A DNA stretch of 64,000 bases, from positions 32,001-96,000 of the IMG/VR virus record IMGVR_UViG_3300024999_000053; one strand, given 5' to 3'. The notes below the pieces were generated by a model. That model was not told where the DNA came from. It saw only the letters and a program-made list of their open reading frames with translations, and did not search any database. This DNA comes from a virus. The translations under genes and the position numbers were made by a program. This document shows positions 43,612 through 47,360 of this stretch, piece after piece (position 1 is the stretch's first letter; each line of letters starts with the position of its first letter).

Positions 43612-44292
43612 TCACAGTGCAAACACTAATACTTTTGCAAATAACATCAAACCACCTAATAATATTGAACCACCAATTATTTGTGTTTTTGCGGTTTTGC
43701 TTTCTTCTGTATCTGGCATATTATCAGGTTGAACTATAGGTGGAAATACAGGATCTTTTATCTCTTGTGTTTGTCCTGCATCTGTAGTTAAATGCGTTTT
43801 TACTTTAGATATTAATTTTTCTAGATTATCATTATCTTTAAAATGCTTTCCAATTTCTACTTCGATCTCATCAGTAACCCCTTCTGCTGTAACAGTTCTT
43901 CGATATTTAAAAATATCCTTATCATATTTTCCATTATCTGATCTGCCTTTTATTTTATTTTGTACATATCTTCCAATTCTATCTAACCCACCTAAACTTG
44001 CTAATTGCATATTTGATGGAACTGCTACAATCATATCCCCTTTGCTTAGTTTTTTATTCCATTCTTGCAGAGTCCCGTATCCTAAACTTGGATTTGATTC
44101 CAACCAAAATATACCATTATTTTGTGGCATCGGATAAAGGTAATATAAGTTAGAATGTGTTTTAGTCACATAATCTGTTGGTGTTGCTTTTGCTACAAAT
44201 GGATTTATTAATGTGATTCCAATCAATATCATCATGATAGATAATGCTAAATTTCTACGAATAGATGATTTTTTCAATATAATTAATCTCAT
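43612..44292 (-). CDS. Exported, membrane-anchored hypothetical protein
   Basis: Signal peptide ending AKA, and a C-terminal TM helix after a Pro-rich linker. Confidence 0.65.
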   Translation of the reverse strand: MRLIILKKSSIRRNLALSIMMILIGITLINPFVAKATPTDYVTKTHSNLYYLYPMPQNNGIFWLESNPSLGYGTLQEWNKKLSKGDMIVAVPSNMQLASLGGLDRIGRYVQNKIKGRSDNGKYDKDIFKYRRTVTAEGVTDEIEVEIGKHFKDNDNLEKLISKVKTHLTTDAGQTQEIKDPVFPPIVQPDNMPDTEESKTAKTQIIGGSILLGGLMLFAKVLVFAL

Positions 44293-44293
44293 A

Positions 44294-44512
44294 TTAATTA
44301 ATCTCCTTCATTCCCCAATTTTTATCAGTAATTGATAATTCAATAATTAATTGTCTTTTGCATTTATTACAAACTACATCAATACTGAATGACTTGCCTA
44401 TTAATTTGTTTGAATTTCCTGCATAAATCATTTCATCATTTACAATTTCTGATCCAATTAATACAATATCTTTCCCACATAAACACTCTAAAATTTGATT
44501 CAATTTTACCAA
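44294..44512 (-). CDS. Small zinc-ribbon protein
   Basis: C.CG...VCNKC. Confidence 0.6.
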   Translation of the reverse strand: MVKLNQILECLCGKDIVLIGSEIVNDEMIYAGNSNKLIGKSFSIDVVCNKCKRQLIIELSITDKNWGMKEIN

Positions 44513-44517
44513 CTCCT

Positions 44518-45171
44518 TTATTTTAAATAACTCATTGGATCAACAGTTTTACCATTAATTCTGATTTCAAAATGTAAATGATTGCCAGTTGAATTATTTC
44601 CAGTTGATCCGATTTCCGCAATCTTTTCGCCACTAAAAACCATTTTGTCTTCCATAACAACAACTTTTGAACAATGAGCATACAAAGTCTCATAACCATT
44701 ACCATGATCAATAATAACGTGTAATCCATATGGGCCTTCAGAATTAATAATCTTCTCAATTTTACCTGTTCGACTAGCTTTAATCGCGTCTCCTAAATTT
44801 CCTGCAATGTCTAAACCATGATTATGTTCATTATAACCTTGTGTAATTTTACCCTTAATAGGCCAATCAAATTTTGCTCCTAAATATCTCTCCCATATAT
44901 TTTTATAACCAACATCCATAGTTTCACTATTACTTTCAATTCCTAATGCATTACTAACTTTTTCCTTTCCTCCACTATAAGTCATAGCAATAGAATGAAT
45001 ATCATCACTAAACTGTTTTAGAGGGGCAAGAGTACATGATAAAACCATTAATCCTAGACTCACAACTGCCAACCATTTGATTGCTAATGCCATCTCCCTA
45101 CCAGACGTATGCCTAACGTAGATATACACTACTAAATATAAAGCACTCAATCTTACAAAGTTCTCAATCAT
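44518..45171 (-). CDS. M23/LytM peptidase with N-terminal two-TM (SpoIIIAC-like) domain
   Basis: FDWPIKG.ITQGY, HGLD, TLYAH, STGNHLHFEIR...VDP. Confidence 0.85.
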   Translation of the reverse strand: MIENFVRLSALYLVVYIYVRHTSGREMALAIKWLAVVSLGLMVLSCTLAPLKQFSDDIHSIAMTYSGGKEKVSNALGIESNSETMDVGYKNIWERYLGAKFDWPIKGKITQGYNEHNHGLDIAGNLGDAIKASRTGKIEKIINSEGPYGLHVIIDHGNGYETLYAHCSKVVVMEDKMVFSGEKIAEIGSTGNNSTGNHLHFEIRINGKTVDPMSYLK

Positions 45172-45374
45172 TTAAATACTTCTTTTACTTTATTAAGGAA
45201 ATCTAGAGAAGCATTTAGCACTAAGAGAGTGACAAGTATTAAACCTAATGTATCAGCATAATATGTCCATTCACCTTTCCCAAATATTTTTAACCCCATT
45301 TTAACGACTTGTAAACCCACAGCAATGCCAAGAATAGCTAAAATTGGGGTAGCTGCTTGAATCCCTGGGAACAT
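45168..45374 (-). CDS. SpoIIIAC-like small two-TM protein
   Basis: ILAILGIAVG....KMGLKIFGKGEW....TLGLI.....FLNKVKEVF parallels SpoIIIAC. AGGAGG RBS. Confidence 0.6.
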   Translation of the reverse strand: MFPGIQAATPILAILGIAVGLQVVKMGLKIFGKGEWTYYADTLGLILVTLLVLNASLDFLNKVKEVFK

Positions 45375-46090
45375 TTTAATTCCTCCTTTTTTGCCAAATG
45401 AAGTTTTAAGCAAAAGTTTCTAATCTCATCAAGATTAAGAAGTTCTATTGAATATGGAAATGCTTTATCCTTATCGATTATCTTCTGGATTTTGTTTTTT
45501 GCTGTATCACCTCCATCAGTTACAATTAAAACTACAAATGTTTGATTTTTGGACAAGTCTATCCACCAATAAGTAGAAATGCCTTGATATTTATCTTTAA
45601 TTAATTTTTCTGCTAATTGATTATACTGTTTGATTTTCTTAAATTCATTACCCGATTCATATCTAGTAAATTCATTGAAATATATCTTTTTATCATTAAA
45701 TGTATCAAATGTCACAAATTGGTCTGGTTTTATAATTGGTAAGAATTGAGTTGGTTCATTTTCAAAAGTAAGATTTGTATAATTACTTGCTTTAGAATTA
45801 AGGATAATAAAAGTATAAACCCATGATTTACCTAATGTGTGTTCAATATTCTTAGGTTTTTTCTCGTCAAATAACCAAAAATAATCTTTTTCTAAAAATG
45901 AAATTCTATCACCTCTCTTAATCCTATGCTTTTTCTCTAATCTCCTACAACAACGATGTGCCATTTCAATTGAAAGACCTTGAAATTCAAGTAAATGGAT
46001 TTGTGTTGTGTTCAAGCAGATACAACGTTCTAGATGTGCCAATACTCTTAAATCTCGGTAATAACCCTTTGTATGATTTGTTTGATTCAT
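45338..46090 (-). CDS. Replication-relaxation (Replic_Relax) family protein
   Basis: wHTH N-terminus RDLRVL..L.R...L.T.QI..L.F; IEHTL; IKPD..V...YFNE (PD-(D/E)xK-like). Confidence 0.7.
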   Translation of the reverse strand: MNQTNHTKGYYRDLRVLAHLERCICLNTTQIHLLEFQGLSIEMAHRCCRRLEKKHRIKRGDRISFLEKDYFWLFDEKKPKNIEHTLGKSWVYTFIILNSKASNYTNLTFENEPTQFLPIIKPDQFVTFDTFNDKKIYFNEFTRYESGNEFKKIKQYNQLAEKLIKDKYQGISTYWWIDLSKNQTFVVLIVTDGGDTAKNKIQKIIDKDKAFPYSIELLNLDEIRNFCLKLHLAKKEELKCSQGFKQLPQF

Positions 46091-47360
46091 AATCGTAGAC
46101 CTCCCCTTGAATATCTGTATATGGCATAGGATATTGAATTAATTTAGAGAGTAATTCTTCATATCTATCTTGGTCTGATACTACGCTAGGAAAGTACATA
46201 GATTGAACTTCTATTTCTTCATCCCAATCAAATATTGCTCTCCCTTTTGCTTTTTTAGGGATAAATGCTGCTTTTGAATTTCCTAAAACCATATTAGAAT
46301 TTATTGGGTCTTTTACACGGTATACAAGATTAGCGTCAAACATGGCTTTGAGTTCACTAAAGTTACCTATTTTGCCTAAACTATTTGCACTCGGCCTTTG
46401 AATCGCACCAATGCTAAATATACCTTGTGAACGACCTTGATGAAGTAAGCGATTAAATGATTCATAAGCAGGAGAAGTAAACTCAGCCATCTCATCACAA
46501 ATGACTACAATTGCTGGCATTTTGTTACCTAACTTTAAGAATTCAGGGAAATTTCTAGCTCCAGTTTTACTAACAATTGGCGATCTTCTGTCATTCTCAT
46601 CATTAACTTGTTTTAATAATTTCTCAATATGTTGAGGTTCTTTTGCCCACATAGCACCATACTTTTCAAAATATTTAAATTCTCCTAGTTTTGGATCACA
46701 TATTACTGGGATTACAGAAGGTTCTTTATCCATGCCTTTTATACTGTTTATTAGTAGCATTGTATAAATGGCTGTATGACTGAAATTTGACTTACCACTT
46801 CCCATCATTCCACAAACGAGCAATGTTAAAATCTCTGCTAAATCCTTTACAATAAATCCATTAATCGAATACCCAAAAGGAATAGGAATCATCATACCTT
46901 TTTTTAGATATGAAGTCGGGTCAAAATTATAAGGATACATTTTTGTTCTATTCACATTAGATATCGTCATATGAACCGCCATTCCATGTTGCTCAATTTG
47001 ACAATTGCCTGTTTCTCCTAAAGAATCTGCAAATGTTTGTTCTAATTTTTTAAAATTTTCGAAATTTAATCCAGCAGGAAGATTAATTACAAAAAACCAA
47101 GTTTCATTATTATGTTCATCTAAACTTTTAATCCTTTGGATTACTTCTTTAATACTTTTTGGTCTTCTTAATTTAGTTTGTTCTATTAAATTTTCATCTT
47201 TTGGGTTTACAAGATGTCTCTTGATAATTATCGGTCGATAATCTTCTCCATAATGAAACACAATTACATCGTAGACTTTTGCAGGAATCCCACCACCACG
47301 TTCTCTTCCTTTTTTCCATTGTTTAATTGCAATATCATAAGCATCCAATTTTTTTGACAT
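45987..47360 (-). CDS. FtsK/SpoIIIE-family DNA translocase ATPase
   Basis: IPFG, GMMGSGKS, DPKLGEF, VVICDEMAE, GRSQGI...QRPSA, GRAI. Confidence 0.9.
   Translation of the reverse strand: MSKKLDAYDIAIKQWKKGRERGGGIPAKVYDVIVFHYGEDYRPIIIKRHLVNPKDENLIEQTKLRRPKSIKEVIQRIKSLDEHNNETWFFVINLPAGLNFENFKKLEQTFADSLGETGNCQIEQHGMAVHMTISNVNRTKMYPYNFDPTSYLKKGMMIPIPFGYSINGFIVKDLAEILTLLVCGMMGSGKSNFSHTAIYTMLLINSIKGMDKEPSVIPVICDPKLGEFKYFEKYGAMWAKEPQHIEKLLKQVNDENDRRSPIVSKTGARNFPEFLKLGNKMPAIVVICDEMAEFTSPAYESFNRLLHQGRSQGIFSIGAIQRPSANSLGKIGNFSELKAMFDANLVYRVKDPINSNMVLGNSKAAFIPKKAKGRAIFDWDEEIEVQSMYFPSVVSDQDRYEELLSKLIQYPMPYTDIQGEVYDYESNKSYKGLLPRFKSIGTSRTLYLLEHNTNPFT

Follow-up and report, generated by a model that had tools for sequence, protein, structure and literature searches.

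An FtsK–Replic_Relax operon with conserved membrane and cell-wall partners in an uncultured tailed phage: a possible DNA-translocation module

A stretch of 64,000 nucleotides (the window), covering bases 32001–96000 of the 117,963-bp IMG/VR virus record IMGVR_UViG_3300024999_000053 (72% complete according to CheckV), contains an operon of six tightly packed minus-strand genes at 43612–47360. It joins an FtsK/SpoIIIE-family ATPase to a diverged Replic_Relax protein (RR), a small protein with two transmembrane (TM) segments (the 2TM protein), an M23 metallopeptidase, a four-cysteine protein and an exported protein. From sequence comparison we tentatively read this operon, with somewhat less than even confidence, as a DNA-processing and DNA-translocation module of the plasmid or integrative and conjugative element (ICE) type, similar to a 'partial TRA' region without VirB4 and VirB6, and belonging to temperate phages and phage-plasmids of endospore-forming Clostridia. 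The window is AT-rich (GC ~0.26–0.35) and its tail, tail-fibre and endolysin genes indicate a tailed phage; the sequence occurs in 11 DNA datasets (groundwater, sediment and soil metagenomes), with no RNA dataset listed. A sequence-only reading had proposed a conduit that moves a plasmid prophage into the forespore or into adjacent cells, and all six open reading frames (ORFs) on which it was built were found again, flanked by putative control signals (aa, amino acids):

47382–47457, minus strand: candidate control region, with a promoter-like TATACA-17-CATAAT and an inverted repeat
45987–47360, minus strand: FtsK/SpoIIIE-family ATPase, 457 aa, PF01580
45338–46090, minus strand: RR, diverged Replic_Relax protein (MOBC-type), 250 aa, predicted N-terminal winged helix-turn-helix (wHTH) and C-terminal PD-(D/E)XK fold
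45168–45374, minus strand: small 2TM protein, 68 aa from an internal ATG, possibly remotely SpoIIIAC-like
44518–45171, minus strand: membrane-anchored M23 metallopeptidase, 217 aa, PF01551
44294–44512, minus strand: four-cysteine zinc-ribbon-like protein, 72 aa, optional operon member
43612–44292, minus strand: exported, C-terminally anchored protein, 226 aa, no known family
43575–43596, minus strand: terminator-like hairpin with a T-run that closes the operon

The operon is strongly conserved among related elements. An RR-family profile retrieved 18 contigs from IMG/VR and 2 from genomes, in all of which (18/18 and 2/2) the order FtsK, RR, small 2TM protein, TM-anchored M23 and exported protein is kept (by tblastn, with the 2TM protein placed by inspection), with FtsK and RR in the distant loci 33–40% identical to those of the window. 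The gap between the RR and M23 genes holds an ORF of 68–92 aa with two TM segments in all 17 loci inspected, while the four-cysteine gene was detected by tblastn in only two of the 18 related viral contigs (L022 and L036). In relatives of ~67 kb the operon is flanked by an integrase (L038) or a transposase (L027); on the other side, a Rep protein of the same PHROG as that of the window occurs in L027 and an amidase endolysin in both, and no ParM was found in the 16-kb loci of these relatives. The integrase- and transposase-flanked relatives thus indicate that the operon occurs independently of a plasmid life style of the ParM type. One further observation concerns L039 (CAYGDX010000005.1), a 64-kb contig filed under an uncultured Gammaproteobacteria metagenome-assembled genome (MAG) that lacks spoIIIAC; the contig carries a complete Bacillota-phage operon and probably either was misbinned or comes from a free phage.

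A reduced form of the operon is found in bacterial chromosomes and in other mobile elements. Among 401 genomes searched, from the phylum of an operon-carrying MAG, 8 contained the RR family: L083 has the full operon and L090 has FtsK–RR–2TM–M23, and the chromosomal loci L084–L089 of Clostridia-type genomes have FtsK and RR without M23. In five of these last six (all except L089) RR is closely followed by genes for one or two small 2TM proteins; the neighbours of the six loci include a serine recombinase (L086), a tyrosine integrase (L087), Abi_2 (L084) and ParA. In two of the loci (L085, 7670–7996, minus strand; L087, 8473–8859, plus strand) the 2TM protein that follows RR is extended at its N-terminus by a long, signal-peptide-like stretch, a layout as in VirB2-type pilins, yet by profile it resembles neither T4SS_pilin nor Maff2. 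Bacillus phage 268TH007 and a Priestia plasmid encode a 96–100-aa two-TM protein directly before FtsK and Replic_Relax, and phage Novomoskovsk has FtsK, Replic_Relax and then a membrane protein annotated 'TrbC/VirB2'. By gene content, three proteins thus recur as a constant set: a small 2TM protein, a predicted soluble FtsK-type ATPase and a Replic_Relax protein.

The ATPase of the window passes the PF01580 cut-off (E 2.8e-8, 33.9 bits against 24), which upholds its original assignment to FtsK, and it has a Walker A motif (GMMGSGKS), a Walker B motif (VVICDE) and a match to phrog_1358 (E 5.6e-39); it is the only FtsK-type gene on the contig (27.9 bits in the contig scan). Membrane segments, here and below, come from a crude hydropathy scan, in which the protein has no N-terminal TM domain: no hydrophobic segment precedes residue 168 and the segment flagged at 168–186 is the Walker A strand. 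It is accordingly described as a predicted soluble ATPase of the FtsK/SpoIIIE family that lacks the fused TM domain of FtsK, SpoIIIE and TcpA proper. The best PDB match is the coupling protein TcpA of pCW3 (6o1x, 38.4 bits), followed by FtsK (36.2 bits), and the plasmid_TraB model NF041214 scores 28.8 bits against a cut-off of 800. The top ATPase matches in the phage collection, labelled Listeria phage LM 4-11-1, were set aside as a host-type FtsK of 761 aa; that record (OR847228.1, unverified, 4.4 kb) encodes an FtsK with N-terminal TM segments between housekeeping-like flanks and looks like bacterial DNA filed as phage.

The RR protein was named Replic_Relax in the sequence-only reading, an assignment that is carried by the family rather than by the window protein itself. 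Alone, RR matches PF13814 at E 0.02 (15.4 bits, below the cut-off of 25.3), while 9 of the 21 members of its alignable family match the model (best E 1.9e-10). The helix-turn-helix part gives faint matches to HTH_24 and HTH_Crp_2. The AlphaFold2 model has a predicted local distance difference test score (pLDDT) of 65.6 overall and 70–93 over residues 85–230, with alpha-beta-beta-beta-alpha-beta order, and its top Foldseek rows are mostly PD-(D/E)XK nucleases (Cdn1, Can2, Shedu, FokI, Nt.BspD6I, McrC, MspJI) at weak E-values of 5e-3 to 5e-2; H84, E112, D123 and E140 are invariant in the family. These results make RR a diverged Replic_Relax protein with a predicted wHTH and a modelled PD-(D/E)XK nuclease fold. 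A tblastn search of RR against the phage collection gave no match at E ≤ 0.1. PF13814 is placed in the MobC relaxase superfamily in passages of one survey (PMC5357655).

The FtsK gene and the RR gene share 104 nt in different reading frames (45987–46090), and in the distant relatives (L020–L039) the tblastn match coordinates leave about the same ~104-nt overlap, with both frames conserved as protein; this unusually long and fixed overlap suggests coupled translation. The RR and 68-aa genes overlap by 37 nt, the 68-aa stop codon overlaps the M23 start (ATGA) and the remaining intergenic gaps are 5 and 1 nt. An SD-like (Shine–Dalgarno-like) AAGGTG precedes the FtsK ATG at 47360. About 75 nt upstream of that ATG and just upstream of the promoter-like site lies a perfect 9-bp inverted repeat, AACCGTTTG-6-CAAACGGTT (47434–47457), a candidate operator or cis site on which RR may act.

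Two hydrophobic segments, as first reported, and a charged C-terminus mark the 68-aa protein, which by position corresponds to the small 2TM protein found with FtsK–RR in the related elements examined. It had also been said to follow the SpoIIIAC pattern, and this part of the claim survives for the clade of the window alone. The protein matches TIGR02848 (SpoIIIAC) at E 1.7e-4 with 22 bits over 57 of 64 positions, below the curated cut-off of 56.65; just 1 of 16 members of its family matches that model, and PF06686 is not matched at E ≤ 10. Profile comparison gave a stronger signal. Using a SpoIIIAC alignment of 19 of 31 genome loci (12 failed the motif or length filter), a SpoIIIAD alignment of 8 and family alignments that left out P0015, P0029 (truncated) and proteins of <60 aa, hhalign scored the small-protein family against SpoIIIAC at 92.7% (score 36.7, 60 columns), close to the score between SpoIIIAC and SpoIIIAD themselves, which share a Pfam family (36.3). 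Controls stayed far lower: reversed alignments scored 13.8 and 15.8, 40 block-shuffles of the SpoIIIAC columns reached at most 14.9, and real 2TM families (6 T4SS_pilin and 3 Maff2) at most 15.6. When 63 family proteins were split by clade, the window clade gave 93.3% and the whole family 86.9%; the sister clades gave 4.0% (B), 2.1% (C) and 16.5%, even though the clades are clearly homologous among themselves (A–B 96.4%, Y–B 78%, Y–C 99.7%).

Other searches bear on this likeness from both sides. In the ESM Atlas, ranks 2–3 for the 68-aa protein are SpoIIIAC clusters (0.89), and PF06686 is faintly matched by two small proteins of L084 (E 0.29 and 0.87). A 15-sequence profile of the family found 5 matches among representative proteins and no bridge to SpoIIIAC, and an 18-row profile found 63 homologues, none named SpoIIIAC at source; some of the small-protein relatives are source-named Desulfosporosinus, a spore-forming genus. 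Single-sequence comparisons, which are of low power, detected no likeness to the SpoIIIAC or clostridial families for the small 2TM proteins encoded by 268TH007, the Priestia plasmid, Thrax1 and Novomoskovsk. The neighbours of the 68-aa gene are RR and M23 rather than a spoIIIA operon, true spoIIIAC–AD pairs are seen in host-type genomes, and none of the other spoIIIA-type genes (AA, AB, AE–AH) is present in the operon. On score and operon context the 68-aa protein is thus not SpoIIIAC proper, and remote homology to SpoIIIAC stands at roughly even odds. Identity as a VirB2/type IV secretion system (T4SS) pilin or Maff2 protein was rejected (hhalign ≤1.9% against 6 PF18895 and 3 PF12750 sequences, and no Pfam match).

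The M23 assignment is secure (PF01551, E 8e-28, 96.9 bits), in a protein with a conserved N-terminal TM region (residues 1–75) and a C-terminal M23 domain. Of the two N-terminal TM segments previously ascribed to it, one is clear (26–44) and the first is weaker. This N-terminus does not bear out the SpoIIIAC pattern claimed for it (hhalign 1.9% against SpoIIIAC, 0.2% against SpoIIIAD, 5.9% against the small 2TM family), and so the proposed SpoIIIAC-like/M23 fusion falls away. The separate second 2TM proteins of L084, L086 and L088 likewise show no detectable likeness to it (1.8%), so that an origin of the anchor by fusion of such a copy was rejected. Nor does the peptidase domain resemble SpoIIQ in particular: the SpoIIQ model NF053738 gives 52.9 bits against a cut-off of 250 and ranks 10th of 14 M23 models, and SpoIIQ chains in the PDB give 34–35 bits compared with 61 for a generic Neisseria M23, so that by these comparisons the domain is generic. 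H118, D121, H166, H198 and H200 are invariant in the family alignment, and the HLH motif and D121 are present in the window. The window clade reads NHGLD where 11 of 18 relatives read HHGID, which places N117 at the canonical first zinc-ligand His (window 44818–44832, M23 residues 114–118); the His-to-Asn swap occurs in three separate branches (window clade, L038 and L008).

The two remaining proteins are less readily classified. The 226-aa protein, called exported and TM-anchored in the sequence-only reading, has one N-terminal and one C-terminal hydrophobic segment (11–29 and 204–222), with a signal-peptide-like N-terminus (…VAKA/TP), a conserved ectodomain of ~150 aa, a Pro-rich linker and a C-terminal TM anchor. 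No family was found for it in Pfam, NCBIfam or the Atlas, where the nearest cluster is an LPXTG cluster at 0.83, and its AlphaFold2 model (pLDDT 55) is too poor for structure search. A complex prediction, run without controls, for the M23 domain (90–217) and the 226-aa ectodomain (37–182) reached a score of 0.01, where the mark is 0.32. Four cysteines (CxC...CxxC) are found in the 72-aa protein, which has weak PHROG matches only and no family match in Pfam scans.

Of the conduit originally proposed, a translocation role remains reasonable, given DNA-handling proteins coupled to envelope proteins. These parts suggest the following mechanism for a plasmid/ICE-type translocation module. RR would bind a cis site, perhaps the upstream inverted repeat, through its wHTH and nick or cut it, and would then pass the DNA to a soluble, TcpA/FtsK-like hexameric ATPase co-translated with it from the overlapping genes. 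TcpA and FtsK carry TM segments fused to the ATPase. Here the small 2TM protein has a gene of its own that always travels with the ATPase gene, and from this co-occurrence we infer that it may serve the motor as a detached anchor in the membrane or as a portal subunit. In the lineage of the window two functions would have been added: the membrane-anchored M23 endopeptidase would open the peptidoglycan locally, and the exported, C-terminally anchored protein would have a surface role (contact, exclusion or wall binding). As an outcome, phage or plasmid DNA would cross the envelope, either through the module alone or by plugging into a helper conjugative element.

Several observations weigh against this translocation reading. 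There is no VirB4 on the contig, as the sequence-only reading had already found for the window (AAA_10, PF12846, no match at E ≤ 0.01 across the 118-kb contig, ~72% complete), no multi-TM VirB6-like gene in the operon and no recognisable oriT (origin of transfer), so these parts do not make up any known conjugation pore. The ATPase has no membrane segment and its link to the 2TM protein comes from co-occurrence only; in practice its TcpA match is no better than its FtsK match (38.4 versus 36.2 bits). With Asn at the canonical first zinc-ligand position, the M23 protein may be a binding module rather than an enzyme. The FtsK–RR pair occurs in Novomoskovsk, described as virulent in a passage of PMC9658697, and cell-to-cell transfer makes little sense for such a phage. 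In the relevant passages of PMC9658697 and PMC11526630 the FtsK–RR pair is ascribed to plasmid replication and segregation and not to transfer, and according to a section of PMC5357655 the MobC relaxases of streptococcal integrative and mobilizable elements (IMEs) pair with VirD4 and not with FtsK-type proteins.

An unlikely alternative to DNA transfer is purely intracellular maintenance, in which the FtsK-like translocase and the RR nuclease aid replication, dimer resolution or segregation of an extrachromosomal prophage and the membrane proteins tether it at the septum. The operon lies back to back with genes for ParM/ParR (ALP_N, E 1.4e-10; phrog_691, E 2.5e-25) and near a Rep initiator (phrog_6493, E 3e-19), which are divergently transcribed on its other side and bear out the earlier description of a phage with a plasmid-type maintenance block. 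M23 proteins act at division septa in many bacteria. The same function is assigned to the gene pair in parts of several phage papers (PMC9658697, PMC11526630, PMC7685451). These points are offset by the ~67-kb relatives, with the operon beside an integrase or transposase and no ParM in their 16-kb loci, by the core trio beside recombinases in chromosomal islands, and by the pair in the virulent Novomoskovsk; moreover, segregation needs neither an exported surface protein nor a wall peptidase.

Superinfection exclusion or defence, with a membrane complex that senses or blocks foreign DNA at the envelope and an ATPase and nuclease that expel or cut it, is likewise an unlikely explanation of the operon. 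It would suit the position of the module at the integrase-proximal 'moron' end of prophages and islands (with Abi_2 as a neighbour in L084), the make-up of a PD-(D/E)XK nuclease, an ATPase and membrane proteins, the presence of the defence nucleases Shedu, Can2, Cdn1 and DdmD among the Foldseek neighbours of RR, and the pair in Novomoskovsk, as virulent phages exclude competitors too. The Foldseek neighbours, however, share only a general nuclease fold at E > 1e-3, and RR is a member of Replic_Relax, a family with known roles in plasmid transfer and replication. Seven proteins were scanned with PADLOC: six of them (five operon proteins and a 544-aa neighbour) matched no family, and the ATPase matched SspH and mad8 at the domain level only.

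A bolder version of the translocation reading, which we consider distinctly unlikely, is a T4SS-independent conduit in which the soluble FtsK motor sits on a SpoIIIAC-derived 2TM subunit and works with a nuclease-type relaxase, the M23 protein and the surface protein to move whole phage or plasmid genomes through the envelope of endospore-forming Clostridia, into a neighbour cell or the forespore. The trio of 2TM protein, FtsK and Replic_Relax in several Bacillota elements would be its minimal form.

Delivery to the forespore, in which a pump like SpoIIIE, a membrane part derived from SpoIIIAC and an M23 protein resembling SpoIIQ move the (plasmid) prophage into the forespore or retain it there, is improbable; it is a special case of the translocation reading favoured only by the clade-limited SpoIIIAC likeness. 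That likeness is specific to SpoIIIAC (hhalign 92.7–93.3%, score ~37, with reversed, shuffled, T4SS_pilin and Maff2 controls ≤16) and agrees with the SpoIIIAC clusters in the Atlas (0.89), the faint PF06686 matches in L084 and the Desulfosporosinus names among the relatives, but it is confined to the window clade, as clades B (4.0%) and C (2.1%) hold the same position in the operon without it and 1 of 16 family members matches TIGR02848, far under the cut-off. True spoIIIAC occurs in 8/8 genomes carrying the RR family, which is not above the phylum base rate of 66/81 and therefore does not discriminate; nothing ties the module to sporulation. The operon also lacks any other spoIIIA-type gene (AA, AB, AE–AH), the M23 protein has neither a SpoIIIAC- or SpoIIIAD-like N-terminus nor a specially SpoIIQ-like domain, and an analogous block is described in part of a report on plasmids of non-sporulating Listeria (PMC8508797).

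Finally, it is very improbable that the operon is two unrelated adjacent units, an FtsK–RR pair and an auxiliary lysis cassette (the 68-aa protein as a class II holin, the M23 protein as a signal-anchored endolysin): a short, two-TM product ending in a charged C-terminus and encoded immediately before a wall hydrolase with a membrane anchor is the classic holin–endolysin layout and M23 PHROGs include endolysins, but the 2TM protein stays with FtsK–RR where M23 is absent (L084–L088, Bacillus and Priestia elements), 37 nt of the 68-aa gene lie within the RR gene, separate amidase endolysins are present in the ~67-kb relatives, and the phage encodes its own Amidase_3 endolysin after the tail genes (26909–27613, plus strand, 140 bits), so that M23 is not needed for lysis.

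Several other features were recorded. A single tyrosine recombinase is present on the contig (9306–9872, outside the window), and no serine recombinase was found there. Just past the operon terminator lies a gene for a protein of 544 aa (41837–43471, minus strand) with an acidic, Lys/Glu-rich N-terminal half and a DGNHR motif, which we take to be ParB/DndB-like; it matches phrog_5732 (E 8e-29) and no Pfam family, and follows the operon in L002 and L004 and not in the distant loci. Two paralogous large genes (22971–24377 and 39743–41776, plus strand) match phrog_4538 and homing-endonuclease PHROGs, and the product of the second has three C-terminal repeats of a ~70-aa unit (…ICLTTGE.F.S..EA…). 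A megablast search of 43000–48000 against phage and plasmid collections gave no match, and when a 618-aa primase-like protein was used to seek a relative of the phage, only Bacillus phage Deep-Purple covered it, at 24% identity.

FtsK and Replic_Relax pairs are routinely filed under 'plasmid replication/segregation' in Bacillota phages and plasmids, and full-text literature searches found no functional test of them; the conserved membrane and wall partners and the constant 2TM protein point to a machine bound to the membrane and not to a replication aid in the cytoplasm. If the module moves DNA, it would offer temperate phages and phage-plasmids of anaerobic spore-formers a virion-independent means of spread or persistence and represent a conjugation-like mechanism without VirB4 in Bacillota; were the T4SS-independent conduit true, phages would have a third way to spread, next to virions and vertical inheritance, and if the module instead excludes foreign DNA it would be a new defence architecture. 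The trio is in any case a well-defined experimental target in cultivable hosts (Bacillus phage 268TH007 and the Thrax phages). What is already known is the FtsK–RR pair, as the sequence-only reading recognised for Firmicute elements (it is annotated in Bacillus phages and a Priestia plasmid), and also its pairing with M23 near ParM and Rep. The SpoIIIAC-like/M23 fusion had been singled out as the unusual part, yet annotations of Bacillus Tyroviruses already place M23 with a coupling ATPase and Replic_Relax; this block and the Listeria report together mean that the combination in a phage is not new as an annotation. New are the strictly conserved five- or six-gene operon, which belongs to a separate lineage of uncultured phages known from metagenomes of groundwater and sediment, the constant 2TM partner, the orphan exported protein and the specific but clade-limited SpoIIIAC likeness.

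Among known systems, one comparison is with TraB-type conjugation of Streptomyces, in which double-stranded DNA is transferred by a single FtsK-like motor without a T4SS; it needs no relaxase and belongs to another phylum with a different cell biology, and the window ATPase scores far under the plasmid TraB cut-off. The SpoIIIA–SpoIIQ channel with SpoIIIE shares a small 2TM protein with SpoIIIAC profile likeness, a membrane-anchored M23/LytM protein and an FtsK-family ATPase, and differs in the sub-threshold match (22 versus 56.65 bits) limited to one clade, the missing spoIIIA operon, the generic M23 domain and an ATPase without the SpoIIIE TM domain. Systems of the TcpA type have non-canonical relaxases and occur in Firmicute ICEs, IMEs and pCW3. 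TcpA is the best solved match of the window ATPase but has its own N-terminal TM segments, unlike that ATPase, and the conjugative members have VirB4 and VirB6. As in the window, a passage of PMC5357655 describes an FtsK-like ATPase gene directly upstream of the relaxase gene; the IME relaxases paired with TcpA are, in the same passage, of the rolling-circle replication (RCR) type and not PF13814. The Listeria plasmids pLIS47, pLIS50 and pLIS52 carry a 'partial TRA' region, reported in a section of PMC8508797, with a replication-relaxation family gene beside T4SS genes and a peptidase; these are plasmids of a non-sporulating host, likened here by description alone.

Further counterparts are found in Bacillus and Priestia elements. 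In 268TH007, Novomoskovsk, RBClin15 and the Priestia plasmid NZ_CP059462 an FtsK-type ATPase is followed by Replic_Relax with a small 2TM or VirB2-annotated protein alongside, and the temperate members carry the set near integrase or partition genes. Their ATPases are ~23–27% identical to that of the window, 268TH007 and the Priestia plasmid have the 2TM gene upstream, and these elements lack the M23, zinc-ribbon and exported proteins; in the Bacillus phages the genes are called 'plasmid replication and segregation' genes or a 'replication, repair, and recombination' operon in the sections concerned (PMC9658697, PMC11526630, PMC7685451). The closest analogue is in Tyrovirus Thrax1 (ON548417, gp11–gp22), a large temperate phage (167 kb), which has a plasmid-like block within ~10 kb, annotated as ParM, three small proteins, M23, a 50-aa protein, a 935-aa T4SS coupling protein, Replic_Relax, a tyrosine recombinase (XerD) and a replication initiator. 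Like the region studied here, it combines ParM and a small DNA-binding partner, small TM proteins (two hydrophobic), M23 with a 2TM anchor, a translocating ATPase, Replic_Relax and Rep. It differs in its Bacillus host, in gene order, in having no counterpart of the exported 226-aa protein, in an M23 protein anchored by two C-terminal TM segments compared with the N-terminal anchor of the window, and in a 935-aa T4SS coupling protein in place of the 457-aa FtsK type. As no protein pair between Thrax1 and the window is BLAST-similar, the architecture recurs with different parts, and for the Tyrovirus block its authors suggest, in a passage of PMC9703825, an origin from a conjugative plasmid.

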